The position numbers and the translations under genes were made by a program. From positions 1-36,303 of the forward strand of contig JANMLN010000171.1 in the NCBI GenBank assembly GCA_031372565.1: 36,303 bases of DNA, read 5' to 3'. The notes beneath the pieces are model-generated. The model searched no databases. It saw only the letters and a list, made by a program, of their open reading frames with translations, and was not told the DNA's origin. Within the stretch, counting starts at the first letter, position 1. Each line of letters begins with the position of its first letter. Of the stretch, positions 2,460 through 33,694 are shown piece after piece. This DNA comes from Gemmatimonadota bacterium (GTDB lineage Bacteria; Gemmatimonadota; Gemmatimonadetes; Gemmatimonadales; Gemmatimonadaceae).

Positions 2460-2490
2460 TCCGCTTCGCCCACCCCTTCAGGACGCTCTC

Positions 2491-3204
<714 letters not shown>

Positions 3205-3206
3205 GC

Positions 3207-3260
3207 CGGTGGTGGGGTGGCCGACTCAGCCCGTGATCGGCGCCGCCCACGGCACCACCG
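3207..3260. terminator. Extended GC-rich hairpin between convergent genes; possible terminator or 3' stabiliser
   Basis: CGGTGGTG (3207-3214) pairs with CACCACCG (3253-3260), with inner GTGG/CCAC, CCGA/TCGG and TCA/TGA pairings. Starts 3 nt after the ATPase stop. No clear U-tract. Confidence 0.4.
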
Positions 3261-3315
3261 CGTACGTCACGAGTACCTCGTTGCCCGCTGCCGATTGGGC
3301 TTCCTTTCCCGCCGT

Positions 3316-4512
3316 CTAGGGATTCTGCGGGGCGGGAGCGGTGGGTCGCACGAGCGGCACACGCGGTCGGCCTCCCGGCCTCGGCGACGTCCGCTGCACC
3401 CGCGGCCCCTCCAGCTGCAGGTCGTCAAGCCCTTCCTTGGTCTCGATCACCCGACCGTCGATTGCCACGTACGTGATGTCCACGCGCCGATTTCGCGCGA
3501 GGTCGGTCACGTTCCCCTCGGCCGTCTTCAGGTTGGCCTTGCCCAGCGCCTGGAGCTGGATGCGCTCCGCCTCGATCCCCTTACCCACCAGGAACGCCTT
3601 CACCGCCTCGGCCCGGCGCTGTGACAGCGCCTGGTTGTACGCGGCGTTGCCGCGCGAGTCGGTGTTGCCTGAGAGGGTGACGCTCACGCCGGCATAGCGG
3701 AGCATCGAGTCGGCCGCGGCCTGCAGCACGCGCTTGCTGCCCGCCGACAGCGTGTCGAGGTTGAGGCCGAAGTGCACGTTGGGGGGCACACCGGTCAGCA
3801 GCTTCGGCGACGTGACCTTCACGTCGGGCACGGTGGACGGCGCCGGATTGCGGGCGATGTACAGCGTGTCGACGCGTGGCGGCGTCAGCTGTACCACCCC
3901 GGGCGGCGGGCGCGAGATGATCCCCACCGCGCCCATCGCGGCGACCTCGGCCAACCGCTGCGGCTTCTCGTTGGGGCACGACAGGTACCCCGCCGCCTCG
4001 AGCGCCGCGCGAACGAGGTGCAGTTCGAGCGCCGCCAGTTCCGCCGACACGCGCTCGAGGTCCTTCGAACCGCGCAGGTCGTCGGCCAGCTTCCACAGGT
4101 CCGCGCGAACGCGTGGTGCGTACGTCGGCGACGCGGTGCCTTGCGCCAACGCGGGCACCTCGCCGGTCTCGAGCGCGCGCGTGAGCTTCACCGCCTCGCC
4201 AAGCGCGTCGCTCGCCACGCTCCCCTTCGCATTGCCCTCGTACGTCTCGCGGGCGAGCGAGACCCACCGCTGCGCCTTCTCGAACGGATACTGCGACAGC
4301 GTCGGCAACCGGCGGCGCGCTGCGAGGAGCCGCCCCTGCCAGAGGTCCAGGGCCGCCTGGTCGCCGGCGATGACCTCGTCGGACAGCCGCTCGCTCACCG
4401 GGTGCAGCGTGGTGCGCTCCTCCCCCTGCGCGCCGAGCGACGGCGCCAGCAGCAGGAAGGCCGAGAGCAGCGTGGCGCGCCGCGCGCGCGTGGACATTGG
4501 CATGGGATTCAT
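3316..4512 (-). CDS. OmpA-C (peptidoglycan-binding) domain protein with signal peptide and helical N-terminal domain, about 398 aa
   Basis: ATG at 4512 overlaps the TGA of the giant gene. Signal peptide 'RARRATLLSAFLLLAPSLGA|Q'. OmpA-C motifs 'VHFGLNLDTL', 'GNTDSRG..AYNQALSQRRAEAV' and 'NRRVDI'. Pro/Arg-rich tail. Confidence 0.9.
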   Translation of the reverse strand: MNPMPMSTRARRATLLSAFLLLAPSLGAQGEERTTLHPVSERLSDEVIAGDQAALDLWQGRLLAARRRLPTLSQYPFEKAQRWVSLARETYEGNAKGSVASDALGEAVKLTRALETGEVPALAQGTASPTYAPRVRADLWKLADDLRGSKDLERVSAELAALELHLVRAALEAAGYLSCPNEKPQRLAEVAAMGAVGIISRPPPGVVQLTPPRVDTLYIARNPAPSTVPDVKVTSPKLLTGVPPNVHFGLNLDTLSAGSKRVLQAAADSMLRYAGVSVTLSGNTDSRGNAAYNQALSQRRAEAVKAFLVGKGIEAERIQLQALGKANLKTAEGNVTDLARNRRVDITYVAIDGRVIETKEGLDDLQLEGPRVQRTSPRPGGRPRVPLVRPTAPAPQNP

Positions 4513-7500
4513 CACTTGCTCCCGGCGACCGCGGGCGCCGAGGCGCCGCGCCCAAAGAGGGATTCGTCGAACTTGAAGGCGAAGTCGAGGTAGGCGCCCT
4601 TCATGGTGAAGCCGAAGCTGCTCAGGTCGCGATCGCGGTAGCCCCACATGTTGTACCCCACCGCGAGACGCAGGTTGGTCAGGATGATCCGGCCCACTTC
4701 GGCGCCCAGCCCGTACTTGCGCGCGGCGCCGCCGTCGTTGAAGAGCACGGAGCCGATGAGCCCCGCATCCCAGCGCGGAGTGAGGTCGTAGATGGCGCGC
4801 GCCATCAGCAACTGCGCGTCGCTGGTGGTGACGAACCCTTCGCTGCGGTCGGTGGCGTACTTGGCCGCCAGGCGCCCGCTCAGCACGAGCCGGGCGTTGG
4901 CTTGGTAGTTGAGCAACCCGGCCACGATGTGCGCGTCGAACCCTGTCGCCGGCAGCCCCACCGGCGTCTGGTTCTCGCGGCGCAGCTCATAGCGCAGGAG
5001 GCCGTTCCAGCGGTTCTCGTCGGTCTCGCGCCACGCCACGCCGAAGTGCGCGCGGAGCCGATCGCCGAGGGTGCCCTGCTGGTCGAACAGGCCGCGCGTG
5101 AGCAGCGTCCAGTCGCGCGAGAGCTTCTGCGCGATGCCGGCGCTGAACAGGTAGCCGTCCTGGCCGTTCTGGCGGCGCCACTCGGCCCGGCTCGTCACCT
5201 TGGTGGTGGCGGGACGGGTGTACTCGATGGCGCCGGTGACAGCCGTGGCGTTGCCGAGCCCCGCGCCGACCAGCGGTGCAACGCGCTCGAGGCTGGTGTT
5301 CACCAGCAGCCCGGGCCCGAGCGCCCACCGGTTGCGCAGGCCGATCGACGCCTCGGCGTCGCGACCGTTGATGGCGTCGCGTTCGCGATACTCGCTGAAG
5401 ATCTGCGCGTTCTTCATGTAGTCGGCATCGATGCCGAACACGGTGTTCTGCTGCGTCTGGCTCGACGTCAGCCCGTACGGGCCGGCGTAGCCGTCAATCC
5501 ACTCGTGGCGGGCATAGGCGCGGGCCCGGCTGGCGATCACGTACTCGCCACCGAGCGAGGCGCGCGTGGCCGAACCGCCCATGTCGCGCTCCAGCTCGCC
5601 GAACACCGACGATCGGTCGCTCCCAGGCAGCCGCGACGTGACCTTGGCGCGGAAGGCGGAGAACGAGGGCGGTACGAGCAGCCCGGTGGTGGCCGCCGAG
5701 GCGACCCCGGTCTCCTTGGCCCACCGAAGGCCCAGCTCGGCGCGGATCATCGTACCGAACGACCGTTCGAGGGTGACGAGCGCCCCGTCGCGCTTGCCCC
5801 CCGTGCGCAGGTCCTCGGTCTCGATGGCCTCGGCCAGCAGGCGCAGCTCCTTCGTCATGGCGAGCGTGGCGCGCGCGCCCAGCTCCTGCCGCCCGGTGCC
5901 GAAGGTGGCCGAGCGGTTGGCGAAGCCGATGCCGGCGCGGGTGCCGTAGACGCGCGCCTCGAAGCCGTCCTGCGCGTGCCGCAGCTCGAACCGGCCGGCG
6001 CGGCCGTCCTGGCCCGCCATGCCGGTGGCCTGCGCGACCTCGACGATGCCCACCGTCCGATCGGCGAAGCGGATGCTGGCGTTCGCGCCGAAGAGCTTGA
6101 GTGAGTCGAGCGGATTCTCGTCGAGCACCGCCACGCCGCCCACTTCCACGCGATCACCGAGCTTGACGGCGCCATCGGCGCCGTACGTGTTGTAGGCGAT
6201 GCCCCCCTGGTCCACCTCGTACGTGACGCGGATGGAGACGGGGTTGAGGTTCGCGTCGAGGCTGGCCACCGGAGCCCGGAAGAGCAGCCGGCCGGTGAAC
6301 GGCTCCACCGTGTAGTCGGCAAAGCGGGTCATGGGCCGCGACTGCAGGATGAGCGCCGGCTGGTTGCGATCGCGGGTGAGGATCTCCACGCGCTCGCTGT
6401 TGATCACCGCGTTCTGGCGCGACAGGAAGTACGGACCGGAGATGCCGCGCCCCGGCAGCTCGTCGATCACCTGCGAGATGGTGCCGCGCGCCGCATACAC
6501 GTTGGCGAGGCCGCGCGCGCCCTCCTGGTGCAGCTGGATGCCGTTGAGCGAGCGGTCCCACGAGCCGAGCAGGCGGCGCTCGTCGCTGCGCGCGGTGGCG
6601 AAGTCGCCGAACCGGTAGTACGAGGCGCCGTCGTCGATGCGCGCGTACAGCCGGCGCTGCGACTGGCCGTCGAACTCGCGCAGCGAGCCGTCGCCGTAGG
6701 TCGGGAACATCTCGTCGGGCTGGATGTCGCGGAACTGCGTCCGGTTCGGGTCGCGCTCGGAGTCAAAGCCCAGGGTGAGCAGCTTGTCGCCGAGCACGGT
6801 GCCCTTGGCGAAGAGCGCCGCGCGCAGGCCGCCGCGCACCTTCCCCGAGTCCTGCGAGAACGACCAGGCGGTGAGCCGCGACTCAAACGCCTCGTCGGGG
6901 GCACTCGTGACGAGCGAGCCGCCCGAGAAGGCCGCGAGGTCGATGCGTCCGGTGACGAGGCCGGCCACCACGAGCGCGCGGTTGGCGGGGGTGAAGGTGA
7001 TGGGGAGCGCCGACTGCGCATTGGGCGACGTGACGCGGATCTCGCCACGTCCCGGCTGCCCGGGCACGAGGAGCTTGAACATTCCCTCGCCGTCGGTCAC
7101 CACCACCTGCGCGCCCTGGTCGGTGCGATCCACGTCGCCCACGAGCCAGCGGCCGAGCGACGCCTCGAGCGTGACGGGCACCCGTCCGGTGAGCTTGTTC
7201 CCCTTGGCGTCGAACAGCTTGACCACCACCGGAATGGCGCTGGTGCCGTCGGCGGGATAGGCGGTGCCCGTGAGGCCCAGCTCCACGCGCCCGGCGCTGG
7301 TGCGCGTGCCGGGCATCAGCTGCGCGGCGCGGAGCGGCGTGGCCGGGAGGTTCGACGTGGCGTCGCTCAGGATGGGCGCGGCAATCGGCGCGGCGGCCGA
7401 GAGCACCGGCACCGCGGTGGGCGCCTCGGTGCCTCCCATGGGCGCGGCGCCTTCCATGCGCGACAGGTCGCCCTCGACCACCGGCATGGTGGGCGCGGCC

Positions 7501-10500
7501 TCACGAACCGGCACGCCGCCGCTGGCCGGCGGCGCCGTGGGCGGCGTCACCCCCGCGGCGATCGGCGCTCCCGCGCTCGTCGGCGCCACGGGCGGCATGG
7601 CCGCGCGGATCGAGTCGGCATTGGACCAGTCCACGGCCCGGGTGCTGTCCGGCTTCTGCGGGATGATGGCGGCCTCGGGCTCGCTCTTCCGGCGGCGCTC
7701 GCGAACCGCCAAGAGCACCTGCGCGTCGTTGGCCGTGGCGAAGTCGGCCTTGCCGAGCTCGCCCCCCTTCACGTCCACGAACCGGGAGGCGGCGTCGAGG
7801 GCGTTGCGGTTGCTCGTGACCACGAGGCGCGCGCCGACGGGCAGCGTCGTGGCATCCACCTTCACCACGTGCATCCCCGACGACACGTCCCAGAAGTTGT
7901 ACTTGCCCTCGCCGTCGGTGATGGCCGAGGTGCCGTCCTCGAGGTAGACGCGGACGCCCGGGATGCCGAGCTCACCCTGCGTCTGCATGCGCTCGTCGGC
8001 GCAGTCGCACGAGGCAAACACCTTGCCCACGATGACGCCGCGATCGCTGAAGACGCCGCGCCGCACGATCACCGCCGCCGCCGCGTTGTTGGCCTGCACC
8101 ACGAGGGTGCCGCTCGATGCGGTGGCGCGGTTGACGGACGTTCCGGCCCGGATGTTGGCGCCGATCTTCACGCGGTAGCTGACGTGCTTCTCGTCGCCGG
8201 GGTTGAGGGTCCCGAGCGGCCAGGTGAGGGCCGGGCCGGCGCCACCCGACGGGTCGGCGAACGCCACGCCCTCGAGCCGGCTGGTGCCCAGCTGGTACAG
8301 GAAGCCCGCCGGCAGCAGGTCGTTGATCTGCACGTTCGGCACCGGCGAGCGGCCAATGTTCTTGACGGTCACCGTGTAGTCGTTCACGCCGCCCACTTCC
8401 ACCACCGGCGACCGCGACACCTTCTGGATGAAGAGGCGGAAGTCGCCGACCACGCTCACCGTGGCGCAGGAGCGGTTGTTGGCGGTGTTCGCGTCGAGCG
8501 CGGCCGCCCCCACCGCGCAGTTGGTGATTGCGCCGTTGAGGTTCGCGGCGGCGCGCACCTTCATCGTCACGAGCACCGAGTCGCCGTCGGCGATCGGGGT
8601 GCCGGTGGAACAGGTCACCACCACGCCGGCCACGGCGCACGTCCATCCCGCGCCGGTGCCACTCGTGAACGTGAGGCCGGCGGGCAACGTGTCCACCACG
8701 GTCACCGTGCCCTGCGTGGGCACGTTGCCGCGGTTGGCCACGCGGAAGATGAAGTCGTTGTCGATGCCGCTCGTGAACTGCGCCCCGACGGCCGTCTTCA
8801 GGAGGTCGAGGTCCACCACGCCGCGCACGACGCTCGCCTTGCTCGCGCGGTTGTTGGTGGTGTCCACGTCGCCCGCCACGCTCGCGGCCACGCGGTTGGT
8901 CACGCCGGGGAACGCTGCCTTGCTCACCAGCGCGGTGAGCGTGATCGGCGTGGAGGCGCCCAGGGCGAGCGCCGCGGTGCTCGTGCAGGTCACCACCGCG
9001 CCCGCCGCCGCGCAGCCGAAGCCCGCGCCGGCCGCCGACTGGAAGGTCAGCCCCGTGGGCAGCGAGTCCACCACTATGAACCCGGCCGGTGCCGGCAGCG
9101 AACCCACGTTGGTCACCGTGAGGGTGTAGGTGGCGCTCGTGCCCACGTTCAACGTGTCGCCGCCGGTCTTGGCCACGGCCACGTTCACTTGGCCGGTGAC
9201 CACGGTGCGCACCGAGTCGCGGTCGTTGCCGCTCCCCACGTCGCCCGGCGTCAGCACGCGCGCGATGTTCGACACGGCGGGCACCGCCGTCACCCCCGGC
9301 GTGACCGCGAGGGTCACCACGGCCGAGGCACCGGCGGCGAGCGGCACCGTGCGCAGGCAGCTCACCACGCCCGCGCTCGCCGTGCACGCGAACGACGGGC
9401 CCGTGGCCGACACGAACGCCAGCGACGCCGGCAGCGAGTCGGTCACGCGAATGGTGTCGGTGGTCGCCCCGGTGCCGATGTTCTGCACGGTGAGCGTGTA
9501 GCTGGCCGCGGTGCCCACGCCGAAGGCGCCCACGGCAGCCTTGGTCAGCCGCAGGTCGGGCGTGGCCGCGACCGGCACGGCGCCCGTGGTGCCCGCATTG
9601 TCGCCCGTGACGGTCTCCCCCGGCGTGCTCACCCGTGCCGCGTTTGTCACGCTCGGCAGGGCGGCGGCCGCCACGTTCACCGTGACCGTAACGAGGCTCG
9701 AGTCCAGCCCGGCGATCGGCGCCGGCTGCGTGCAGGTCACCACGGTGGCCGCGCCCGGCGCCGCGCAGCTCCAGCCGGCGCCCGTGGCCGAGACGAAGGT
9801 CAACCCGGCGGGCAGCGTGTCGAGCAACGCGGTCACCCCGCTCGTGGCGATGGTCGCGACGTTGCGCACCACGAACTGGAACTGGGCCGTGCGACCCACC
9901 GCGAAGGCGCCGATCGCGCGCTTCACCAGCTGCACGTTGGGCGCGGCCGAGATCGTCACCGGCGCGCTCGACGCCGAGTCGTTGGCCGGCACGAGGTCGC
10001 CCGGGGTGCTGGCCCAGGCGCGATTCACGATCGAGGCCGGGGTGCCGACGCCGACGATGGCGCGCACCACGACCGATGCCGTGTCGCCCGCGACGAGCAC
10101 GGCCGCCCGCGCGCAGCTCACCACGCTCCCGGCCGCCGAGCAGCTGAAGGTGGACGGTTGCGCCGAGAGGAACACCAACGCTGTGGGCAGCGTGTCGGTG
10201 AGCGTCACCGCGCCGGTCGTGGGCCCGGACCCGCCGTTGCTCACGCGGAGCCGGAAGCTCGCCGTGTCGCCCACCGCGTAGCTGGCGGCCAGCGCGGTCT
10301 TGGTCATCGCGAGGTCGGGCACCACGGTCACGCCGATGGCCGGCGTGGTGGCGGTGTTGTTCGTGGCGTTCACGTCGCCCGGCGTGGTCACGGTGCCGCT
10401 CACGATCACGCTGGGGAGTGCCCCCGGCAGGACGTTCACGCTGATGTTCACGAACGAGGAGTCGCCCGGCACGAGCGGACCCGGGTTGGTGCAGGTCACC

Positions 10501-13500
10501 ACCTGGCCCACCGCGCTGCAACTCCAGCCGGTGCCGCTCCCCGACGCGAAGCTCAGCCCCGGCGGCAGCGTGGTGGAGTAGGTCAGCGGGGCGGTGGTTG
10601 TCCCCGAGCCCACGTTGCGGATCGTGTTGCGCAGGGTCGCGGGCTGACCCACCACGAATGCGCCGAGCGGCGCCGTGGCGAGCGAGAGGTCCGGGGCGAC
10701 GCCCACCGGCACCGCCGGGGTGGCAGCCGAGTCGTTGACCGCCGCCGGGTCGCCCGGCGTGGCAACCACGGCCGAGTTGGTCACGCTCGGCTGCGCCGCC
10801 GGCAGCACGTTGACGGTGAGCGTCACGACCGAGGAGTCGGCGATGGCGATGGCCGTGGGCGAGGTGCACGTGACCAGCTGCGCGACCGCGCTGCAGGTCC
10901 AGCCCGTGCCGACGCCGCTCGCGAAGGAGAGGCCCGTTGGGAGCGGGTCGGTGATGGTGACCAATGCACTCGTGGCGGCCGACCCGGTGTTGCGGACCAC
11001 CAGGCGATAGGTGGCCGTCGCACCCACCACGAAGCTCCCGACCGCCGTCTTGGTCATGGACAGGTCGGGGGCGGTGGTCACGGGGATGGACGGCGTGGCC
11101 GACGTGTTGTTGGCGCCCACCGGATCACCCGGCGTGGTGACCGTGGCCGAGTTGATGACGCTGGGCAGGGCGCCCGCCAGCACGTTCACGGTGAGCGTCA
11201 CGACCGATGAGTCTGCCGGCAGGATGGGGCCGGCGTTGGTGCAGGTGACCGCCTGCGCCACCGCGCCACAGCTCCACCCGGTGCCCGTGCCCGACACAAA
11301 GGCGAGCCCGGTGGGCAGCGTGTCGGTGAGAGTCACGGCGCCCGTGGTGCTCCCGGAGCCCATGTTGCGCGCGACGATGCGGAACGTGGCCGGTCGCCCG
11401 ACGATGAACGCGCCGACTCCCGCCTTGCCCAGCACCAGGTCTGGCGCCACGCCGATGTTGCCCAGCGGCGCGCTCCCCGAGTTGTTGCTCGCGTTGGGAT
11501 CGCCGGTGGCCGACACCCACGCGCGGTTGGCCAGGGTGCCCGTGGCGTTCGCGGCCACGAGCGTGGTCAGCGTGATCGCCACCGAGTCGCCCACCAGGAG
11601 CGGCGTGGCGCGCGTGCACGTCACCACTTGGCCGCTCACGCCGCAGGTGAAGCCGCCACCCGATCCGAACACGAACGAGAGCACGGTCGCCAGCGTGTCG
11701 GTGACCGTGACCGTGCCGGTGGTCGCGGCGGACCCGAGGTTCTGCACCGAGAGCGTGTAGACCTGATTCTGCCCGGCCACCGGGTTGGTCGAGCCGGCCT
11801 TGAGCAGGCGCAGGTCGGGGGCCGTGGTCACCGGCGACGTGGCCGTGCCCATGTCGTTCGTGGCGTTCGGGTCGCCCGCCGTCTGCCCCCAGGCCCGGTT
11901 GGTGGTGCTCGGCAGCGCCGGCGCGCCCACCGTCACGGACACGGTGACGACATCGGAGTCGCCCGGAGCGAGTGGTGGCGGCCGCTTGCAACTCACGACG
12001 CCGGCGGCGGCGCTGCAGGCGTACGCGCCGCCCGAGGCGCTCACGAAGGTCATGCCGGCCGGGAGCGTGTCCACCACGCGCACCGAGTCGGACGTGGCCA
12101 GCGAGCCCACGTTCTTCACCACCAGCTGCCACGACGCGGGCTGCCCCACAATGAAGGCGCCGGTGGCCGCCTTGGTGAGCTGCACGTCGGGAGCGCCACT
12201 CACCGGAGTGCCGGCCAGCGTGGTGCTGTTGTTGCCGCCGTTGGTGTCGTTCGGCGTGGTCACGGTCGCCGTGTTGCTCACGGTGGAGGCCGCCGACGGA
12301 TCCACGAGCACGGTGAGCGTCAGCACGCCCGAACCAGCGGCCGCGATCGGGCCGCTCGAGGTGCACGTCACCGTCTGGCCGGCGACAATGGTCCCGGTCG
12401 CGCTGCAGCTCCAACCGGTGCCGCTCGCGGAGACATATCCGATCCCCGGCGCGAGGTTGTCCACGACGGTGATCGTGCCCGTGGTGGCGCCCGTGCCGAT
12501 GTTGTTCACCGTGAGCTGGTAGCTCGCCGGTTGCGAGCGCACAAACGGAGTGAGGGCGATCTTGCTGACCGTGAGGTCGGGGGCGACCACCGCGAGCGTG
12601 GAGGTGACGCCGCGATCGTTGGTCGCGTTGGCGTCGCCGACGGTGCTCACGGTGGCGGCGTTGGTCACCGAGCCGAGCGCGGCGGCGGTCACGTTGGCGG
12701 TCAGCGAGAGGATCACGTCAAGTCCGGCCGTGATGGCGGGCTGCGTGGGCGGCGCCGGGCGCACGCACTGCACGATGTCGCGCGCGGGCGCGGGCGTCGT
12801 GCCGATCACGCTGCACGTGAAGGTCGCGCCCACGTCACCGCCGCTCACGAACGTCATCCCCTCCGGCAGGGTGTCGGTGACGGTCACGGCGCCGGTATTG
12901 CCCCCGGTGAGCGGCGGCACCGGCGAGACGTTGGACAGCGTGATCGTGAACGTCGTCTGGCTGCCCACGTTGATGGGACCACTCCCCGTCTTGCCCAGCG
13001 CGAAGTCGGGCACCGAGGTCACCGGGAGCGGCGCCGTCACCGCGGTGTCGTTCGCGAAGATGAAGTCGCCCGGCGTGGACACCGACACGATGTTGCGAAC
13101 GGTCGGGAAGGCGGTGAGCCCCACCGCGGCCGCGATCGGAAAGGAGACCGCCGCACCCGAGGCGATCGGGCCCGCGCTGGTGCAGGTCACGATCTGTGCC
13201 ACGGCCGAGCAGCTGAAGCCGCTGCCCCCCGAGCCGCCGGCCGAGTAGGTGAGCCCCACCGGCAGCGAGTCGCGCACGGTGATGGCGCCGGTGGTCGGGC
13301 CCGCCGACACGTTGGTGACGCTGATGTTGAACGTCGCCGTGTTGTTCACGATGATCGCGCCCGCCGGCGCCTTCGCCACGGTGAGGTCGGGAATGGACGA
13401 CACCGTCACCGGCCCCGTCTGGAAGGTGTCGTTGGTGGGATTCAGGTCGCCCGGCGCGCTGACCGTCACCCGGTTCACCTGGCTCGGCAGCGCCGACACC

Positions 13501-16500
13501 GTCACGTCCACGAACAGCGGGAAGGTGACGAGCGTGTTCGCCGCGATCGCGGTGGCGCGCGTGCAGGTGACGATGTCGCGGCCCGAGAAGGTCCCCGTCA
13601 CCGAGCAGGCGAAGCCGTTGCCGCCGGAGCCGGTGACGCGGTACGCCATGCCCGTGGGCAGCGTGTCGGTCACGGTGATCGGGCCCGGTTGGTTCCCGGG
13701 CGAGACGTTCTGCACGCGGATCGTCCAGCTGGCCGGACGGCCGACGACGAAGAGCGAGTCGGGCGCCTTGGAGATCGCGATGTCGGGCGAGGCGATGACC
13801 GCCGTGGGTGCGTCACTGCCGAAGTCGTTCGCCGGGTTCGGGTCGCCAGGCGTGCTCACCCGCACCGTGTTCGTCACGCTCGGTAGCGCCAGCGCCGTCA
13901 CGTTCACCACGAGGGCGATGGACACCGTGCCGCCCGCGGCGATGGGGCCCGCGCTGGTGCAGGTGACCACTTGGCCGAGAGCGCCGCAGGTGAACCCCGT
14001 GCCGATGCCGCTGCTGAAGCCGAGCCCGGCGGGCAGGGTGTCGGTCACCGTGATGGTGCCGGTGGTGGACGACGAGCCCACGTTGTCCACCTGCAGGGTG
14101 TAGGTGCCGGTGAAGCCCGTCACGAACGACCCGCTGTGCGACTTGAAGACGGCGAGATCCGGCGTGCCGATCACCGGCGTGGGGTCGGTGGCGCGATTGT
14201 TGGCCGTGCTCGACTCCCCGGGGGTGCTCACGCGCGCCACGTTCGTGGCGGTGCCGATCGCGCCGGCCGCCGGCGTCACCTGGATGCCGAGCGTGCTGTT
14301 GCCGCCGGCCGGAATGGGGCCGGCGTTGGTGCAGCTCACCACCTGCCCGGTGGCCACCACGCCCGTCGTGGTGCAGCTCCATCCGCCCCCGGTGGTGCCG
14401 ACGAACGCGACGTTCGCCGGGAGCGAGTCCACGAGGGTCACCACACCGGTGGTGGCGGAAGTGCCGGCGTTGGTGACCGTGAGGTTCCACGTCCCCGGCT
14501 GCCCCACCACGAAGCTCGACGGCGTGTGCGTCTTGGCAATGGTGAGGTCGGGGCGCTGGACCGTGCGCGCCGGCGCGGACCCGGTGTCGTTCGACGGATT
14601 CAGGTCACCGGGCGTGGCTGACACGACCTGATTCGTCACCGTCGCCGCAGCCGTCGAATCCACGCTCACGGTGAGCGTCACCTGGGCCGAGTCGCCGGCG
14701 GCAAGCACCGGCGCCGCCGGTCGCGTGCAGCTCACGTTCTGAGCGACCGCGCTGCAGCTGAAGCCGCCCCCCGTGCCGGAGACGAAGGTGAGGCCCGTGG
14801 CGAGCGCGTCGGTGAGGGTGATGACCCCCGTGGTCGGTCCCGGCGACACGTTCACCACGGTGAGCAGATAGCTCCCGGTGCCGCCCACGGCAAAGGCGCC
14901 ACTGAACGACTTCCGCACGGTGAGGTCGGGCACGCTCACCACGCCGATGGGTCCCGCGAAGCCGCTGTTGTTGGCGGGGTTCTGATCGCCCGGCGTGGAC
15001 ACCCACGCGCGGTTGGCGACGCTCGGGATGGCCGCGGCGGTGGGGGTCACCGTGAGCACGATGGACGCCGAGCCGCCGGGTCCGATCGGCCCCGGACTGG
15101 TGCAGGTGACCACGGGGGCGCTGAACGAACAGCTGAACCCGCCGCCCGCCGCAGAGCCGAAGGTGAGCGAGGCGGGCAGCGTGTCGGTGACGGTGATGAC
15201 GCCCGAGGTCGCGGCGCTGCCGGTGTTCTGCACCGCAAGCGTGAAGGTGCCCGCAACCCCCACCGCGAGCGTCCCGCTCGCCGTCTTGGTCAGCCCGAGG
15301 TCGGGGACGCCGAGCACGGGAGTGGCCGTCACGCGCGCGGTGTCGTTGGTCGCGTTCAGGTCGCCCGGCGTGGTGCCACGCGCCAGGTTGTTCACTGCCG
15401 GCAGCGCCGCGCCGCCAACAGCCACCGTGAGCACGATCGTGGCGGAGCCGCTCTGCGCCAGTGCCGGTACCGCCGGTCGCGTGCAGGTGACGAGCGGCGC
15501 CGCCGACACGCAGCTGAAGCCGCCCCCCGCGGCCGACACGAAGGTGAGGCCCGTCGAGAGCGTGTCCACCACGGTGATGGTGCCGGTGGTGGCCGAGCCG
15601 CCCACGTTGGTCACGGCGATGTCGTAGGTGGCGTTGGCCCCGATGCTGAAGGTGCTCGACGCCGTCTTCACCAGCTGGATGTCCACCGCGCCCACCACGG
15701 GCACCGCCGGCGACGACGCGACGTTGTTGCCCGCATTGGGGTCGAGCGGCGTGGACACGCGCGCGCGATTGGTGACCGCGGGCGCTGCGGCGGCCAGCAC
15801 GTTCACCGTGAGTGTCACGACCACGGAGTCGCCGACGGCCACCGGCGTACCTGCCGGGCGGAAGCAACTCACGACCTGGCCGGTGTTGGCGCAGGTGAAG
15901 CCGCCTCCCGTGGCGCCGGCGAAGGTGAGCCCCGTCGGCAGCGTGTCGAGCATGCGCATGCTGTCGGCGGCTGCGGCCGAGCCCACGTTCTTCGCCACGA
16001 GCGAGAAGGTGGCCGTGGACCCGATCACGAACGGCGAACCGGTGGTCCCCTTGGCCATCTGCAGGTCGGGCACGCCGATGGTCACCGTGAGGTCGCTGGC
16101 CAGGTTGTTGCCCGGCGTGTTGTCGCCGCCGCCGGAGACGCGCGCCCGGTTGGTGAAGCTGGCCGGCGCGCCGGTGGGGACGGTGACGTTCAGGGTGATG
16201 GGCGCCGCCGCCGCGGAGGCCGCGAGGCCGCCGCTCAGCGTGCACTGCACCACCTGCCCCGTGATCGTGCAGCTCCAGCCGGTGCCGCTGGCCGAGGTCG
16301 GGACGATGGGCGCCGGCACGGTGTCGAGCACCACGATCGGCGCGGCCGTGGTCCCGCCGTTGCCGACGTTGGTGACGGTGAGCGTGTAGGCCCCGGTGCC
16401 GCCGCGCGAGAAGTCGGCGGGGTGAGTCTTGGTGATCGTGAGGTTGGGACCCGCCACGGGCGAGAGGGTCGGCGGGGTGCCACCGCCGCTCGTCAGCGAA

Positions 16501-18026
16501 TCCCGGCTCTTGGCATTGATCGGCGTGCCGAGCGTCTGCGAGATGCCGGTGACGACCGCCTGGTTGGTGATGATGAAGCCGGCCGGGATCGTGTCGCCGA
16601 CGACGACGCGAAACTGGACTGCCGTGGTGGCCCCGGGGGCGAGCGTCCCGCCAGTGGCGCCATTCGCACCGGTGCCGAGGCGGAACACCACGCGCGGCGT
16701 GCCGGTGGACTGATACTCCCCCTGATCGTCGGCGAGTGGGTCGGTCTTCACCCCCGCGTTCGCCCCGTTCACCACGCGCAGCGTGCCCGTGGCGTACGTG
16801 GTGCCGGTCGGGATCGTGTCGATGAGGACGGAACTGAGGGCGCCGTCCTGCCCGGAGTTGGCCACCGTCATGTAGTAGAGCAGCGTGTCGCCGGGCGAGA
16901 GCAGCCCGCCGTTCACGTCGGTCACGAGCTTGACGACGTTGCCGTTGATGACCGGGTTGAACAGGTCGACGAGGAAGGTGAGCACGCCGGGGAGGTACTG
17001 GTCGCCCGAGGTCGTGAAGGAGATCGTCGCACTGGTGGCCCCGGCGGGCACGGCCGCGGTCTTCACCTGCTTGGCGTCCACCCCCATCTGGTTGGTGAAC
17101 GCCGGGTTCTGGCCCGCCGTCACGTACACGCCCGTGTCGGCGATGGTGGAGTTGAAGAAGTCGCCGGCCAGTGAATTCACGTCGGCGAGGTCGGTGCCGT
17201 TGACGCGCATGCGGTCACCGGTGAAGCCGGTGCCGCGGTCCCCTTCCCACGAGACCACGCCGACGCGCGTGGTGGGGGTGCCGAGCGCGGGGGTGAGGAA
17301 GCCCGACACGGTGGTGTTCACGGTGGACCCGCCCTGGATGTTCCCGAAGCCGTCGAACACCGTGAGGTTGCGGAGCGGCCTCGATCCGTCGCGCAGCACC
17401 ACCACCAGCGACCAGCCGGCATAGTCGTTGCCGGCGGCGGTGTTGATGTTCGCCTGCACGTTGCCCACCGAGTAGCTGCCCGAGCCGCCGGCCTGCACCA
17501 GCGACGTGACGTTCACGAACCCCTGGTACTCGGTGCCCGTGCCGTTCGCGTCGAGCGTCGAGGCGGTGACGGTGATGTAGCCGGGGGTGGCGGGGGTGCG
17601 GAACTGCACCTGGCCGCGCTGCGCACTGGTCGAGCGCGCGCTCCAGTAGAGGCCGGCCCACAACACGCTGGCCCCGGTGGGGACGTTCAGCGACGAGACA
17701 CTCGAGTTGAACGTGGCGGGATTGCCGTCCACGTCCACGTACTGCATGCGGTAGTTGTTGTTGACGCCCTGGTTGAGCGACACGGTGCCCGACTGCGCCT
17801 GGGCACAGGTGAGGGCGCCTGCCGTGGAGCCCGTGGCGAGCGTGTTGCTGCAGGTGGCCAGCGTGTTGCCGCGGATGACGATGTCGCCGGCATCGTTGAC
17901 GGAGAACCGCGTCGTGTACGCGCGGCGCACCTGGGCTTCGGCGGCGGAGGTCGCGATCATGAGACCAACGCCAGCGAGGATGGCGCGCGCGACAACAGAC
18001 CCCGCGCGACGGAGGCGGGGCATCAC
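4512..18026 (-). CDS. Giant secreted DUF11-repeat surface protein/adhesin (4,504 aa) with C-terminal predicted outer-membrane beta-barrel region
   Basis: Uninterrupted ORF (GTG 18026 or ATG 18023). Sec signal ending 'AAEA|Q'. Head domain with WAGLYW / GWSLVVV / FDGF / EGD / FFNSTI motifs. 23 repeats of 'PDLxxxK...N.G...D(T/S)LP...N.A.V'. SdrD-B-like domain, Pro/Ala linker and Ig-like domain, then ~820 aa with amphipathic beta-strand pattern ending 'GAYLDFAFKFDE'. Confidence 0.92.
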   Translation of the reverse strand: MMPRLRRAGSVVARAILAGVGLMIATSAAEAQVRRAYTTRFSVNDAGDIVIRGNTLATCSNTLATGSTAGALTCAQAQSGTVSLNQGVNNNYRMQYVDVDGNPATFNSSVSSLNVPTGASVLWAGLYWSARSTSAQRGQVQFRTPATPGYITVTASTLDANGTGTEYQGFVNVTSLVQAGGSGSYSVGNVQANINTAAGNDYAGWSLVVVLRDGSRPLRNLTVFDGFGNIQGGSTVNTTVSGFLTPALGTPTTRVGVVSWEGDRGTGFTGDRMRVNGTDLADVNSLAGDFFNSTIADTGVYVTAGQNPAFTNQMGVDAKQVKTAAVPAGATSATISFTTSGDQYLPGVLTFLVDLFNPVINGNVVKLVTDVNGGLLSPGDTLLYYMTVANSGQDGALSSVLIDTIPTGTTYATGTLRVVNGANAGVKTDPLADDQGEYQSTGTPRVVFRLGTGANGATGGTLAPGATTAVQFRVVVGDTIPAGFIITNQAVVTGISQTLGTPINAKSRDSLTSGGGTPPTLSPVAGPNLTITKTHPADFSRGGTGAYTLTVTNVGNGGTTAAPIVVLDTVPAPIVPTSASGTGWSCTITGQVVQCTLSGGLAASAAAAPITLNVTVPTGAPASFTNRARVSGGGDNTPGNNLASDLTVTIGVPDLQMAKGTTGSPFVIGSTATFSLVAKNVGSAAAADSMRMLDTLPTGLTFAGATGGGFTCANTGQVVSCFRPAGTPVAVGDSVVVTLTVNVLAAAAPAVTNRARVSTPLDPNAGNNVASSPAVPVVGAVDIQLVKTASSTFSIGANATYDIAVTNVGGSATTGTITVVDTLSTGLTFVSAAGGGFSCVSAAPLVTCTRPAVPALAQSGSATIVLTVAVGGAALPAVNNLARGTTPGDLNATNDTARVTATPVLGVPDLGLTKTASGTLAVGVAGTFTLAVQNTGSAATSGVITVTDTLPASLTFGSAAGGGFSCSFSAPVVTCTSPGPIGPGGSASIVLTVTPTAAAIPSVANRAWVSTPGDQNPANNSGFAGPIGVVSVPDLTVRKSFSGAFAVGGTGSYLLTVVNVSPGPTTGVITLTDALATGLTFVSGTGGGFSCSAVAQNVSCTRPAAPVLAAGDSAQVTLTVSVDSTAAATVTNQVVSATPGDLNPSNDTGSAPARTVQRPDLTIAKTHTPSSFVVGQPGTWNLTVTNAGTSATTGVVTLVDSLPANVAFVGTTGGGWSCTTTGVVATGQVVSCTNAGPIPAGGNSTLGIQVTPAAGAIGTATNVARVSTPGESSTANNRATDPTPVIGTPDLAVFKSHSGSFVTGFTGTYTLQVDNVGSSSTTGTITVTDTLPAGLGFSSGIGTGFTCGALGQVVTCTSAGPIAAGGTVSIALVVNVTALALPSVTNTVRVSTPGDPNPANDFGSDAPTAVIASPDIAISKAPDSLFVVGRPASWTIRVQNVSPGNQPGPITVTDTLPTGMAYRVTGSGGNGFACSVTGTFSGRDIVTCTRATAIAANTLVTFPLFVDVTVSALPSQVNRVTVSAPGDLNPTNDTFQTGPVTVSSIPDLTVAKAPAGAIIVNNTATFNISVTNVSAGPTTGAITVRDSLPVGLTYSAGGSGGSGFSCSAVAQIVTCTSAGPIASGAAVSFPIAAAVGLTAFPTVRNIVSVSTPGDFIFANDTAVTAPLPVTSVPDFALGKTGSGPINVGSQTTFTITLSNVSPVPPLTGGNTGAVTVTDTLPEGMTFVSGGDVGATFTCSVIGTTPAPARDIVQCVRPAPPTQPAITAGLDVILSLTANVTAAALGSVTNAATVSTVGDANATNDRGVTSTLAVVAPDLTVSKIALTPFVRSQPASYQLTVNNIGTGATTGTITVVDNLAPGIGYVSASGTGWSCSATGTIVAGQTVTCTSSGPIAAAGSGVLTLTVLVDPSAASTVSNTATVTTPNDTNGGNNSTTLAGTPVSGAPDVQLTKAATGAFIVGQPASWQLVVKNVGSLATSDSVRVVDTLPAGMTFVSASGGAYACSAAAGVVSCKRPPPLAPGDSDVVTVSVTVGAPALPSTTNRAWGQTAGDPNATNDMGTATSPVTTAPDLRLLKAGSTNPVAGQNQVYTLSVQNLGSAATTGTVTVTDTLATVLSFVFGSGGGFTCGVSGQVVTCTRATPLLVGDSVAITLTTLVAANATGTLANRAWVSATGDPNASNNSGSAPLGNIGVAPDLVLGKAGVGAFIVGRPATFRIVARNMGSGSTTGAVTLTDTLPTGLAFVSGTGTGWSCGAVAQAVTCTNAGPILPADSSVVTLTVNVLAGALPSVINSATVTTPGDPVGANNTSATPSIPVTTAPDLSMTKTAVGSFVVGATATYRLVVRNTGSAATSALVTITDPLPTGLSFASGVGTGWTCSAVAQLVTCTSPTAIAIADSSVVTLTVNVLPAAQPSVTNSAVVATPGDPAAVNDSAATPAVPVGVAPDLSLATAPLGAFVVGQPATLRNTIRNVGSGTTTAPLTYSTTLPPGLSFASGSGTGWSCSAVGQVVTCTNPGPLVPGDSSFVNISVNVLPGALPSVIVSGTVTTPGDVNATNNTATTPAIGVTVVPDLAMTKTALAASYAVGDTASFRLRVSNGGSGPTTGAVTLTDTLPTALVFLSAQPSTFSCSAAGSVVSCARAAVLVAGDTASVVVRAIVGVGTPASIVNRAWASTPGDLVPANDSASSAPVTISAAPNVQLVKRAIGAFAVGRTAQFQFVVRNVATIATSGVTALLDTLPAGLTFVSATGAGWSCAAPGAATVVTCTQPAPIAGLDSSLVTVTVNVAAAALPSVTNAARVSTPGETVTGDNAGTTGAVPVAATPDLRLTKAAVGAFGVGTAASYTLTVQNIGTGATTDTIRVTDSLPASLAFVSATGPSFACTASAGVVSCLRTVPLAAGASAVVTLAVTPGVTAVPAVSNIARVLTPGDVGSGNDRDSVRTVVTGQVNVAVAKTGGDTLNVGTSATYTLTVTNVGSLPAPAGFIVVDSLPTGLTFQSAAGAGFGCAAAGAVVTCTSTAALALGASTPITLTALVSKAAFPGVTNRVAASVAGDVDTTNNRASKASVVRGVVDLDLLKTAVGAQFTSGIDNDFIFRVANRGNVPTQGTVTVVDTLPAGLTFTSGTGAGWTCAVAGVVVTCSTGTPIADGDSVLVTMKVRAAANLNGAITNCAVGAAALDANTANNRSCATVSVVGDFRLFIQKVSRSPVVEVGGVNDYTVTVKNIGRSPVPNVQINDLLPAGFLYQLGTSRLEGVAFADPSGGAGPALTWPLGTLNPGDEKHVSYRVKIGANIRAGTSVNRATASSGTLVVQANNAAAAVIVRRGVFSDRGVIVGKVFASCDCADERMQTQGELGIPGVRVYLEDGTSAITDGEGKYNFWDVSSGMHVVKVDATTLPVGARLVVTSNRNALDAASRFVDVKGGELGKADFATANDAQVLLAVRERRRKSEPEAAIIPQKPDSTRAVDWSNADSIRAAMPPVAPTSAGAPIAAGVTPPTAPPASGGVPVREAAPTMPVVEGDLSRMEGAAPMGGTEAPTAVPVLSAAAPIAAPILSDATSNLPATPLRAAQLMPGTRTSAGRVELGLTGTAYPADGTSAIPVVVKLFDAKGNKLTGRVPVTLEASLGRWLVGDVDRTDQGAQVVVTDGEGMFKLLVPGQPGRGEIRVTSPNAQSALPITFTPANRALVVAGLVTGRIDLAAFSGGSLVTSAPDEAFESRLTAWSFSQDSGKVRGGLRAALFAKGTVLGDKLLTLGFDSERDPNRTQFRDIQPDEMFPTYGDGSLREFDGQSQRRLYARIDDGASYYRFGDFATARSDERRLLGSWDRSLNGIQLHQEGARGLANVYAARGTISQVIDELPGRGISGPYFLSRQNAVINSERVEILTRDRNQPALILQSRPMTRFADYTVEPFTGRLLFRAPVASLDANLNPVSIRVTYEVDQGGIAYNTYGADGAVKLGDRVEVGGVAVLDENPLDSLKLFGANASIRFADRTVGIVEVAQATGMAGQDGRAGRFELRHAQDGFEARVYGTRAGIGFANRSATFGTGRQELGARATLAMTKELRLLAEAIETEDLRTGGKRDGALVTLERSFGTMIRAELGLRWAKETGVASAATTGLLVPPSFSAFRAKVTSRLPGSDRSSVFGELERDMGGSATRASLGGEYVIASRARAYARHEWIDGYAGPYGLTSSQTQQNTVFGIDADYMKNAQIFSEYRERDAINGRDAEASIGLRNRWALGPGLLVNTSLERVAPLVGAGLGNATAVTGAIEYTRPATTKVTSRAEWRRQNGQDGYLFSAGIAQKLSRDWTLLTRGLFDQQGTLGDRLRAHFGVAWRETDENRWNGLLRYELRRENQTPVGLPATGFDAHIVAGLLNYQANARLVLSGRLAAKYATDRSEGFVTTSDAQLLMARAIYDLTPRWDAGLIGSVLFNDGGAARKYGLGAEVGRIILTNLRLAVGYNMWGYRDRDLSSFGFTMKGAYLDFAFKFDESLFGRGASAPAVAGSK
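8045..16960 (-). repeat. Tandem array of 23 DUF11 (TIGR01451-like) Ig-fold protein repeats, about 125-145 aa each
   Basis: Counted by eye in the translation. Repeats 2-22 (from 16448) share PDLxxxK, DTLP, (W/F)xC...VxC, NxAxV and GDxNxxN(N/D). Repeats 1 and 23 are Cys-free variants. Units are divergent at the DNA level. Boundaries approximate. Confidence 0.88.
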
Positions 18027-18440: not shown

Positions 18441-19370
18441 TCAGGTCGACACGAGGGTGCGCCAGTTGTGCGTATCCGGCAGCGCCCCCTTGGCGTACTC
18501 GAGATACCGCTTCTGCAGCGCGAGCGTGATCGGCCCCGCCTTCCCGGACCCGATCGGCTTGCGATCCACCGTGGCGACGGGCGTGACTTCGGCGGCCGTA
18601 CCGGTGAAGAAGATCTCGTCCGCCCCGTACAGCATCTCGCGCGGAATCTGGCGCGGCTCGATCGTGATGCCGATGTCGTTGGCGAGCGTGATGATCGAAT
18701 CCATCGTGATGCCGGGGAGCAGCGTGCCGTCGAGTGCGGGCGTGTACACCTTGCCGCGCCAGACAACGAAGATGTTCATCCCGGTGCCTTCGCTCACCAG
18801 CCCGGCGGGGCTCAACCCGATCGCTTCCTGGAAGCCGTTGCGCTTGGCCTCCCACTTCATGAGCTGGCTGCTCAGGTACTGCCCCGCCGCCTTGGCCATG
18901 AGCGGGTAGGTGTTGGGATGCGCGCGCTGCCAACTGCTGACGCAGGCGTGCACGCCGGCCTCGAGCGCGCCGGCGCCCAAGTAGGTGCCCCACGGGAAGG
19001 CGGGCACGTACGTCTCGACGGGACTGCCATCGGCTTCAAGGCCGGCAGCGCCGTAGCCGAGCAACACGACCGGGCGGAGGTAGCAGCCCGTGAGCTTGTT
19101 TCTCGACACGGCATCGAGGCACGCCTTGGTGAGCGTCGCCATGTCGTGCGTGACGTCCAGGTTGTACGTGCGCGCCGAGTCGAGCAGACGGCGCAGGTGA
19201 TCCTCGAGGCGGAAGATCGCGGGACCGTCCGGCGTCTCATAGCAGCGGATCCCTTCGAACACGGAGGTGCCGAACTGGACGGCGGTCGCGAGCACGTGCA
19301 GCTGCGCGTCCTCCCACTTCACGAACGTTCCGTCCTTCCAGATCCAGTCGGCCTTGGTGATCGGTGCCAT
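18441..19370 (-). CDS. ilvE: Branched-chain amino acid aminotransferase (PLP class IV)
   Basis: 'WIWKDG.FVKWEDA', 'FGTSVFEGIRCY', 'FRLEDHLRRL', PLP lysine region 'AKAAGQY', 'EGTGMNIF', 'LLPGITM', 'ADEIFFTGTAAEVTPV'. Confidence 0.93.
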   Translation of the reverse strand: MAPITKADWIWKDGTFVKWEDAQLHVLATAVQFGTSVFEGIRCYETPDGPAIFRLEDHLRRLLDSARTYNLDVTHDMATLTKACLDAVSRNKLTGCYLRPVVLLGYGAAGLEADGSPVETYVPAFPWGTYLGAGALEAGVHACVSSWQRAHPNTYPLMAKAAGQYLSSQLMKWEAKRNGFQEAIGLSPAGLVSEGTGMNIFVVWRGKVYTPALDGTLLPGITMDSIITLANDIGITIEPRQIPREMLYGADEIFFTGTAAEVTPVATVDRKPIGSGKAGPITLALQKRYLEYAKGALPDTHNWRTLVST

Positions 19371-24287: not shown

Positions 24288-24395
24288 GCCTGAGAAGATG
24301 GAGAGCGCCGCCGTGTTGCGGCAGCGCCCACCGTGCGCTGGCGCGCGCGTGCACACCACCGCATGATGGAGTCGTCCCTTTGCGCCGGAGAGCGT

Positions 24396-26127: not shown

Positions 26128-26254
26128 GGCAGGATGCGACGAGGGGAGAGGAACGGTCAAAGCTACGCGGCCGCTGCGCGCCGAGGCGGTTCGGCATGAA
26201 TGGCGCTACTATCTGCCGGAGCGCGCGTCCGTCTCACTCGCCATCCCATTCGTC

Positions 26255-33216: not shown

Positions 33217-33645
33217 ATGATGCTGACGTACGTCTCGATGCTTGGTGCGGCACTCTTCGGCGTGCTCGCGCTCATCCACTTCGGCTGGGCCGCCACGGGG
33301 CGCGTACCCGCGGCGGTCGTGCCCACCAAGGGCGACGGCACGCGACTTTTCGAGCCGAAGCGGAGCGAGTCTGCGGTCGTCGGGAGCGCACTGCTGGTGG
33401 CGGCGTTCCTCCTGCTCCAGCGCGGGGGGGTGGGCCCGACCGTCCTGCCGCACTGGGCGCGCGCGACGGGCAGCGCGGTGATCGCGATCATGATGCTGCT
33501 GCGCGCGATCGGCGATCGACAGTACGTCGGCCTCTTCAAGCGTGTGCGGAAGAGTGTGTTCGGCCGTCTCGACACGGCGTACTACACGCCCCTGGTCATC
33601 CTGCTCGGGACGTTCGCCGGCCTGGTCGCGTTCCTCGGCCGCTGA
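33217..33645 (+). CDS. DUF3995-like membrane protein
   Basis: 'LIH..WA', several hydrophobic helices, 'LLRAIGD..YVGLFK......F...DT..YTPL'. Confidence 0.8.
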   Translation: MMLTYVSMLGAALFGVLALIHFGWAATGRVPAAVVPTKGDGTRLFEPKRSESAVVGSALLVAAFLLLQRGGVGPTVLPHWARATGSAVIAIMMLLRAIGDRQYVGLFKRVRKSVFGRLDTAYYTPLVILLGTFAGLVAFLGR

Positions 33646-33694
33646 TGGCGGATGCGGCTCAACAGCAGCGCGCTCGCGCGTTAGCTTGGGCTGC

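Follow-up and report, generated by a model that had tools for sequence, protein, structure and literature searches.

We report that a giant fibre gene in a 36,303-nucleotide stretch of DNA from a Gemmatimonadota bacterium (GenBank assembly GCA_031372565.1, contig JANMLN010000171.1; hereafter the window) ends in a C-terminal module that belongs to a real, widespread and so far unnamed protein family. For the module C terminus, we predict a very large outer-membrane domain of the beta-barrel type, and the gene overlaps that of a partner protein with a peptidoglycan-binding OmpA-C domain. We consider it rather likely that the two genes encode a barrel-anchored, self-exporting fibre that is braced to the cell wall by the partner. 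Below, giant-protein numbering refers to amino acids (aa) of the 4,504-aa product, and the last 862 aa served as the module query.

Layout of the giant protein and its partner

The open reading frame (ORF) of the giant, P0001, starts with GTG at 18026, an alternative ATG lying one codon later, and encodes a signal peptide, a head, 23 DUF11/CLIPPER domains, an SdrD_B-like domain, a Pro/Ala-rich linker, a Big_1-like domain and the ~820-aa module, in that order. Its TGA stop (4514-4512) overlaps the ATG of the OmpA-C gene (4512-4510) by one base, the A, to give TGATG. A first-pass annotation of the window had proposed both this architecture and the stop/start overlap, and the reading frame and Pfam matches confirmed them. 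Promoter and terminator scans around the two-gene operon returned nothing useful. The features of the locus are as follows.

4512-18026, minus strand: giant adhesin gene, an open frame of 4,504 aa (DUF11 E 6e-245, Pfam)
17931-18026, minus strand: signal peptide, aa 1-32, Sec-type by reading of the translation, with a cleavage-type site between ...AEA and QV
16887-17930, minus strand: head (tip) domain, aa ~33-380 (~350 aa), of no named family; its homologues are N termini of separate proteins
8067-16886, minus strand: stalk of 23 DUF11/CLIPPER immunoglobulin (Ig)-like domains, aa ~381-3320 (Pfam, TIGR01451, TIGR04226)
7707-8066, minus strand: SdrD_B-like (CnaB-type) domain, aa ~3321-3440 (Pfam SdrD_B, E 1e-5)
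7302-7706, minus strand: Pro/Ala-rich linker, aa ~3441-3575 (~135 aa), by sequence composition; the split point in relatives
6957-7301, minus strand: Big_1/invasin-like Ig domain, aa ~3576-3690 (sub-threshold Big_1, E 5e-4, and Invasin_D3)
6243-6956, minus strand: module N-domain, aa ~3691-3928, a ~200-aa beta domain in which family conservation peaks; it may be a plug or a periplasmic domain
4569-6242, minus strand: predicted transmembrane beta-barrel, aa 3929-4486 (~560 aa), 32 strands by DSSP on the AlphaFold2 model
4512-4568, minus strand: C-terminal tail and stop codon after the last strand, with a short helix at module residues 846-849
3316-4512, minus strand: partner gene, 398 aa, with signal peptide, helical N-domain, Pro-rich linker and OmpA-C domain
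3913-4425, minus strand: partner N-domain, aa ~30-200, a helical bundle specific to the system, with no Pfam family
3463-3780, minus strand: partner OmpA-C peptidoglycan-binding domain, aa ~245-350 (Foldseek to Pal, OprF-C and OmpA-like structures)

The module is a widespread family

By sequence, the module gave no match above noise in Pfam, NCBIfam or the PDB. Its relatives number 2,826 representatives at 50% identity with E<=1e-3 and 1,233 with E<=1e-30, and it occurs in at least 594 species genomes, as 594 of 600 candidate stretches were confirmed with one genome scanned per species. For neighbourhood work we kept 80 loci, whose labels, counted from titles, were Pseudomonadota (52), Verrucomicrobiota (10), Gemmatimonadota (9), Desulfuromonas/Geobacter-type (3), Acidobacteriota (2), Balneolaceae (1) and Saccharimonadales (1, a doubtful bin label), with 2 unlabelled. 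In 202 of 228 full-length matches, no more than 25 residues separate the end of the module from that of the protein, and more than 150 residues follow it in 19 of the 228. DUF11 accompanies it in 12 of 20 scanned homologues and in nearly all of the 120 longer homologues listed. Two homologues, P0049 (residues 2712-2939) and P0055 (residues 2441-2617), carry TPR-S and MAP3K_TRAF_bd-like domains more than 600 residues past the module; either the gene calls have joined a downstream gene to them, or the extension is real.

One database protein is 100% identical to the window product over the 862 aa of the module, which there occupies residues 3621-4482. Among the matches listed, the closest relatives (76-81% module identity) come from Gemmatimonadota metagenome bins; they are fused proteins of 2,365 to 4,300 aa, and their source names are only 'DUF11 domain-containing protein' or 'TIGR01451 repeat protein'. 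A literature search, to which most subscription journals were closed, turned up no account of a DUF11 protein that carries a barrel at its C terminus.

Predicted fold of the module

AlphaFold2, run on a 41-row alignment of the module, gave a model with a mean predicted local distance difference test score (pLDDT) of 75.5 and a predicted template modelling score (pTM) of 0.68, on which strands were assigned by DSSP. The model consists, in order, of a Big_1 remnant, a beta-rich domain (module residues ~80-280), 32 strands, a one-turn helix and the tail. The strands are consecutive, 9-17 residues long and span module residues 287-844, a stretch that also has amphipathic periodicity. Gaps average ~3.8 residues after even-numbered strands versus ~6.4 after odd-numbered ones, suggesting that the former are periplasmic turns and the latter outer loops, with both ends of the barrel in the periplasm. 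The same topology, with a periplasmic C terminus, is suggested by relatives in which an OmpA-C domain is fused after the tail (L036, L060 and L076, as well as P0066 and P0079).

A Foldseek search of the model against the PDB returned 144 matches at E<=1e-3, and all but two of the rows listed were outer-membrane barrels, including TonB-dependent receptors, the FimD usher, MtrB, LptD, SlpA, OprC and RagA. Weak matches to outer-membrane-barrel families of Pfam fall within the strand stretch in 14 of 46 scanned modules and exceed the curated cut-off in two of them, L056 (BBP2) and L059 (OMP_b-brl, BBP2 and DUF2490), and Atlas look-alikes of the module carry the name 'outer membrane protein beta-barrel'. 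Mean-field direct coupling analysis of 229 aligned modules (effective number of sequences, 195) yielded 51 apparent strand ladders versus ~46 for random placement, which amounts to noise. The last predicted strand ends in ...FAFKF, beyond which the chain has a tail of 18 residues; across the family, module residues K843-F844-D845-E846 are almost invariant.

Conservation in the family is highest ahead of the strands, in the module N-domain, where mean column identity reaches 60% across 31 sequences from several phyla. The domain is modelled as beta strands with pLDDT ~80-90 at module residues 150-260, and its profile found no relative in the PDB or Pfam. The proposal of the first-pass annotation, a very large C-terminal barrel of ~820 aa with a tail beyond the last strand, thus holds as a prediction from AlphaFold2, Foldseek and the Pfam matches of relatives, and the tail is present; the strands, however, take up ~560 aa of that length, and ~200 aa form a separate conserved domain. 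If all 32 strands stand in one wall, barrel geometry gives an estimated diameter of ~5-6 nm, which would accommodate a plug as well as folded Ig domains.

The OmpA-C partner

The partner matches PF00691 at 53.2 bits (cut-off 27.2) and was modelled by AlphaFold2 at a pLDDT of 84.8, its N-domain forming six helices at pLDDT ~90-96. In Foldseek, its OmpA-C domain superposes on Pal and OprF-C with target-normalised TM-scores up to 0.93 and a root-mean-square deviation (rmsd) of 1.1 A. The partner alignment shows near-invariance of D285 and R300, which are spaced by 15 residues; this Asp/Arg pair of the binding motif would bind diaminopimelate.

We then searched the 80 loci with profiles of both partner halves. 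Downstream DNA could be assessed in 67 of them, which fell into four groups: a full partner directly after the anchor gene (26), the helical domain only, in Opitutaceae (3), OmpA-C fused to the module (3; L036, L060 and L076) and no partner within the fetched flank (35). The partner N-domain is kept in downstream genes of 29 of the 67 loci, at E 8e-21 to 1e-71, and no OmpA-C match lies elsewhere in the +/-10 kb flanks of the surveyed loci. Among the 35 partnerless loci, some next genes run out of the fetched DNA, and the partner may lie farther on. Linkage of the module to DUF11 and OmpA-C genes, which the first-pass annotation had put forward as a check, is present across phyla and includes natural fusions; for OmpA-C it extends to 32 of the 67 loci but is not universal. 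A paired prediction of module residues 50-850 with partner residues 28-226 scored 0.09 and 0.06 against a mark of 0.32, which bears neither way on binding.

Some partners depart from this plan. In L068 (12625-14862), a 746-aa variant has two HYR domains between the helical N-domain and OmpA-C, and the OmpA-C-less partners of the Opitutaceae loci L009, L017 and L021 carry an extra N-terminal helical insert.

Head, stalk and membrane-proximal domains

The head sequence found nothing above noise in the PDB, Pfam or NCBIfam apart from a weak GLEYA match (E 0.006, Pfam), and its Atlas look-alikes are 'cell surface protein' clusters, 15% of whose members have DUF3344. Homologues of the head (E 1e-56 to 1e-89) form the N termini of separate large proteins in 7 related loci, and in L004 a head homologue lies within the anchor ORF itself.

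Behind the head, DUF11 (PF01345) matches the giant at 797 bits (cut-off 24.6; E 6e-245) over 22 stretches, TIGR01451 at 353 bits over 19 stretches, and the isopeptide-domain model TIGR04226 at E 1.5e-42; DUF7933 is matched as well. The count of 23 domains comprises 21 regular repeats of ~125 aa (aa 527-3195) and one DUF11 domain on each side. Every one of the 21 regular repeats retains two Cys. A Lys near repeat position 7, an Asp near 42 and an Asn near 99 are each retained in 20 of the 21, and repeat 16 lacks all three together. These residues stand at the same positions as the isopeptide triad, with Lys in the first strand, a catalytic Asp and Asn in the penultimate strand, of a solved CLIPPER domain (residues 708-828), for which a Lys715-Asn806 bond catalysed by Asp748 is reported (10.1101/2025.04.25.650565), suggesting that the repeats of the window protein may form such bonds too. 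Tandem Repeats Finder detected no DNA-level array within the giant gene; the repeats are old, with no DNA-level likeness among them.

Between stalk and module, the SdrD_B match (aa 3341-3398) is sub-threshold at 23.6 bits (cut-off 29.7), and the SdrD_B-like domain is 43% identical to the C-terminal end of a separate stalk protein in L051. Big_1 (20.7 bits) and Invasin_D3 (15.1 bits) likewise score below cut-off, and this Big_1/invasin-like domain is also present in the short anchors of relatives.

Fused and split fibres in relatives

Comparison of the related loci revealed that the fibre is encoded in different ways. In layout A (the window, L004 and probably L001), head, stalk and module form one chain. 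In layout B, found in L047 (Undibacterium terreum CGMCC 1.10998) and L051 (Hydrogenophaga laconesensis BE240), a stalk gene is followed by a short anchor gene and then the partner gene; the stalk protein of ~2,800 aa has its own signal peptide, and the short anchor of ~1,050 aa consists of the Big_1/invasin-like domain and the module. The layout B stalk and anchor proteins align with giant aa 3198-3447 and 3592-4496, respectively, the former stopping and the latter starting on opposite sides of the linker stretch, which indicates that the window gene is a fusion of stalk and anchor across the Pro/Ala linker.

Layout C is an operon of four to five genes in 37-44 of the 80 loci (for example, L038 3211-20619, L079 1650-20076 and L025 3168-20267). 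It runs from a ~180-aa protein with a single DUF11-like domain, present in 37 of the 80 loci, through a ~900-1,000-aa protein and a ~1,900-2,500-aa anchor to, sometimes, the partner and finally a large repeat protein, whose head is homologous to the window head in 7 loci. The locus had been called self-contained in the first-pass annotation; this is so for the window, but most relatives divide the fibre among two to four genes. Besides the two layout B species, cultured non-pathogenic carriers of the system include Variovorax sp. CCNWLW235 (L079) and Xenophilus arseniciresistens YW8 (L060).

In 44 of the 80 loci, 72 secreted proteins other than the anchor end in a special truncated DUF11 domain, counted with a hidden Markov model (HMM) built from 15 such termini because the window-derived DUF11 HMM was too narrow. 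The domain breaks off near profile position 84 of 114, where the protein itself ends; its first-strand Lys and Asp motif are retained, but the two final strands, which bear the Asn, are missing. At least 22 long anchors have a mature N terminus that begins with a conserved two-strand motif bearing Asn. The presence of this Asn in 21 of the 22 anchor peptides is a biased count, as the peptides were picked by a motif-demanding regular expression (3 of 25 matches were dropped by eye). The two kinds of terminus suggest domain completion in trans, and strand donation between tip or adaptor proteins and the anchor is a lead. Pfam DUF11 matches none of the 22 donor peptides, and the window-derived DUF11 HMM matches the anchor motifs weakly (individual E 1e-3 to 10), at HMM positions ~72-123 where present. 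On the giant itself, the 'acceptor' profile matches best the first DUF11 domain after the head (aa ~368-476, E 8e-9). Directly behind it lies the only 'donor' match in the giant (aa 481-507), which scores 2.5 with the HMM from the 22 anchors, not above shuffled and reversed controls.

A contig labelled Candidatus Saccharimonadales (L048) carries a full diderm-type operon with a barrel anchor and two acceptor-ended proteins; since Saccharimonadales are not expected to possess an outer membrane, the bin label is probably wrong. In the Verrucomicrobiota loci L013 (2-2034 and 15759-20162) and L009 (148-2345), genes for hybrid histidine kinases and a LuxR-type response regulator lie on the flanks of the operon. 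This kinase/regulator cluster (cluster 7) lies beside the operon in 14 loci, which hints at two-component control of the adhesin operon in Verrucomicrobiota.

Neighbouring genes in the window

A MacB-type trio, assigned by Pfam, is convergent with the OmpA-C gene:

1-1215, plus strand, running beyond the window edge: FtsX/MacB_PCD permease
1155-2459, plus strand: HlyD-family adaptor
2434-3204, plus strand: ABC ATPase

The statement of the first-pass annotation that no type 1 secretion system is adjacent had overlooked these genes at 1-3204. Beside the 80 related loci, FtsX had 0 matches, HlyD 1, and generic ABC matches were scattered. As the trio is not conserved beside relatives, we rejected these MacAB-type neighbours as the exporter of the giant.

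On the other side of the locus, a 1,100-aa ORF (21231-24533, minus strand) is an unusual fusion of an APH-type phosphotransferase, a peptidase M23 and a class-III aminotransferase. It is adjoined by class IV and class V aminotransferase genes (18441-19370 and 19873-21150), described as lying just upstream. Farther on, two Amidohydro_3 genes (26081-28006 and 33542-35428, both plus strand; E 6e-102 and 4e-96) lie 5.5 kb apart, with genes for an HI0933-like flavoprotein, a UDG-family glycosylase and an esterase between them.

Discussion

For fibrillar adhesins of diderm bacteria, the usual assignments are type 1, type 5 and type 9 secretion and chaperone-usher pili. The module matched no characterised transporter family by sequence or fold, in keeping with the view of the first-pass annotation that no characterised secretion class has this layout. 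In type, it is a previously unannotated type-V-like system that would work most like an autotransporter with a plugged pore and a TpgA-like brace. As in type Va autotransporters, one chain joins a Sec signal to a passenger on the N-terminal side and an outer-membrane domain at the C-terminal end, and the last strand is aromatic-rich. The classical autotransporter beta-domain has 12 strands, whereas the module has ~32 predicted strands, a ~200-aa domain and an Ig domain before them and a conserved tail after them, and neither Pfam nor NCBIfam found an Autotransporter-family beta-domain in the C-terminal 862 aa even at E<=10. The passenger differs as well, being a giant array of Ig-like domains with Cys pairs and isopeptide triads that relatives encode in separate genes.

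With the type Ve intimins and invasins, the system shares a barrel beside Big_1/invasin Ig domains, a tandem Ig stalk, a distal head and a peptidoglycan-binding element. The barrel of the giant, however, comes last rather than first and is far larger, its Big_1 and Invasin_D3 matches are sub-threshold, and it does not have the combination of N-terminal barrel and Big_1 repeats. Inverse autotransporters bind peptidoglycan by a LysM domain of the same chain, whereas here a separate OmpA-C protein would do so. For type Vb, Pfam searches of the giant, the module N-domain alignment and the neighbours found no TpsB/POTRA or TPS domain. The partner has its closest functional precedent in TpgA, a periplasmic protein encoded with the trimeric autotransporter AtaA of Acinetobacter sp. 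Tol 5; TpgA is reported to bind the AtaA membrane domain with its N-terminal part and peptidoglycan with its C-terminal OmpA-like part, and to raise resistance to extraction (PMC12523085, PMC13082670). The partner differs from TpgA in that it scores only 48.1 bits on NF047726 (cut-off 350), where the OmpA-C part alone aligns, and its helical N-domain is a family of its own.

Ushers are large plugged barrels that pass folded Ig-like units. The resemblance of the system to the chaperone-usher pathway (FimD/PapC) lies in the large barrel, for which FimD has the best query-normalised TM-score, 0.26, too low for homology, and in the proteins of related loci whose last Ig-like domain is incomplete. 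The window barrel differs in being fused to the fibre, and Pfam found no Usher or PapD-type chaperone in the window or the related loci scanned. Type 1 adhesins of the LapA/RTX kind, which carry a C-terminal secretion signal or RTX repeats and rely on a dedicated ABC transporter, an adaptor and a TolC-type channel, differ in turn: the giant has an N-terminal Sec signal and no RTX-type match in Pfam, and the adjacent ABC genes are MacB-type (FtsX and MacB_PCD) and unlinked to the family. The stalk itself is a textbook DUF11/CLIPPER array, with 22 Pfam stretches and the Lys-Asp-Asn triad. The CLIPPER survey, in its accessible part, gives Por_secre_tail, CHU_C and LPXTG as sorting domains, and its main text does not contain the term 'outer membrane' or mention a C-terminal barrel anchor (10.1101/2025.04.25.650565).

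We propose that the giant protein would be exported by Sec and that its C-terminal ~560 residues would insert in the outer membrane as a ~32-strand barrel, with the conserved ~200-residue beta domain before it acting as a plug or periplasmic gate. The Big_1-like domain and the Pro/Ala linker would thread through the barrel, placing outside the cell the SdrD_B-like domain, the 23 DUF11/CLIPPER domains and a distal head that would bind the target. The barrel would then be the anchor and most likely the export channel, following autotransporter logic with a pore of usher scale or larger. In the periplasm, the OmpA-C domain of the co-translated partner would hold peptidoglycan while its helical domain would engage the barrel base, a presumed contact through which pulling force on the long fibre would pass to the cell wall. 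The membrane topology, the role of the plug and adhesion are all putative. The case for export through the barrel comes from the split relatives: their separate Sec-exported fibre proteins need an outer-membrane exit, and no other conserved candidate gene for an outer-membrane component is present, so that the module is likely the exit too.

Several observations weigh against this proposal. Within the module model, 100 of 862 residues have a pLDDT below 50, and closure of the wall, its strand count, the pore size and the place of the N-domain are presumed from that model. Every Foldseek TM-score is 0.28 or lower, with rmsd above 15 A, so that the fold class is clear, nearly all matches listed being large outer-membrane barrels, but the family is not. 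Pfam found no barrel match in the window module or in 32 of the 46 relatives scanned. With no partner in the flank of 35 of 67 loci, the brace would be dispensable or replaced in half of the family. The MacB-type trio adjoins the locus. The stalk probably passes through the barrel, as judged from the gene content of split relatives, and export assisted by the beta-barrel assembly machinery (BAM) or the translocation and assembly module (TAM), or by other routes, is possible. The literature search found no experiment on any member of the module family.

The barrel could instead be an anchor only, a passive porin-like structure whose strand number is unrelated to export, with the stalk brought to the surface by BAM/TAM or an unlinked machine. 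Its weak likeness to the porin-type families Porin_4, BBP2 and OMP_b-brl and to the OmpT porin would fit, as would the adjoining MacAB-type exporter and the lack of any POTRA, TPS or usher domain detected by Pfam. We nevertheless think this fairly unlikely: split relatives encode stalk or tip proteins with signal peptides beside the anchor and conserve no other outer-membrane component there, the MacAB trio is missing beside the 80 loci, and conservation peaks in the ~200-aa domain before the barrel rather than in the barrel wall, which suits a gate better. That the 13.5-kb frame is an assembly chimera or a chance ORF, and the fusion of stalk and barrel not real, is hardly credible. The DNA around it has ~70% G+C and many spurious long ORFs on other frames, and relatives do have the gene split at the linker; yet Pfam domains run along the frame from end to end, a database protein carries the identical module at residues 3621-4482, and the same fused layout recurs in the relatives of 2,365-4,300 aa and in L001 and L004.

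A further reading makes the locus an envelope tether or S-layer base, in which barrel and partner serve mainly to tie the outer membrane to peptidoglycan, as SlpA does in Deinococcus, and the DUF11 domains make up a surface layer instead of an adhesive fibre. DUF11 proteins have been proposed as archaeal S-layer components (10.1101/2025.04.25.650565), the fold of the partner is one that binds peptidoglycan, and Foldseek lists the 30-strand barrels of SlpA/SDBC. Those barrels score query-normalised TM values of 0.20-0.24, however, and the SlpA-type tether combines its barrel with SLH and coiled-coil domains, neither of which Pfam found here. The distinct distal head, common to the separate tip proteins of relatives, the wide variation in repeat number among close relatives (2,365 to 4,300 aa at 76-81% module identity), as in length-variable adhesins, and the lack of the partner in half of the family all argue against this reading, and we regard the tether as improbable.

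Beyond the self-exporting fibre, the module may represent a new class of outer-membrane secretion and assembly, a doubtful possibility. In such a class, a plugged ~32-strand barrel may export Ig fibres that are folded and cross-linked in the periplasm, in cis, as in the window, or in trans. Split-locus fibres may be built by beta-strand complementation between the truncated DUF11 domain and the two-strand motif of the anchor, with an intermolecular Lys-Asn isopeptide bond as a possible lock on the join, and the window protein may be the fused form of the split system. If the strand join is covalent, this would be a sortase-independent, SpyTag-like assembly of covalent pili in diderm bacteria.

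The module is found in thousands of protein clusters from several phyla of soil and freshwater bacteria and has neither a family name nor a solved relative. If it is both anchor and channel, it would add a secretion route for very long, mechanically locked fibres and explain how hundreds of giants annotated as 'DUF11 domain-containing' arrive at the surface. The TpgA principle, the bracing of a large adhesin to the cell wall, would have a second and independent example in the dedicated OmpA-type partner. For the question of how fibres are joined, the split loci are a natural experiment, and a join that proved covalent would be of interest to protein engineers.

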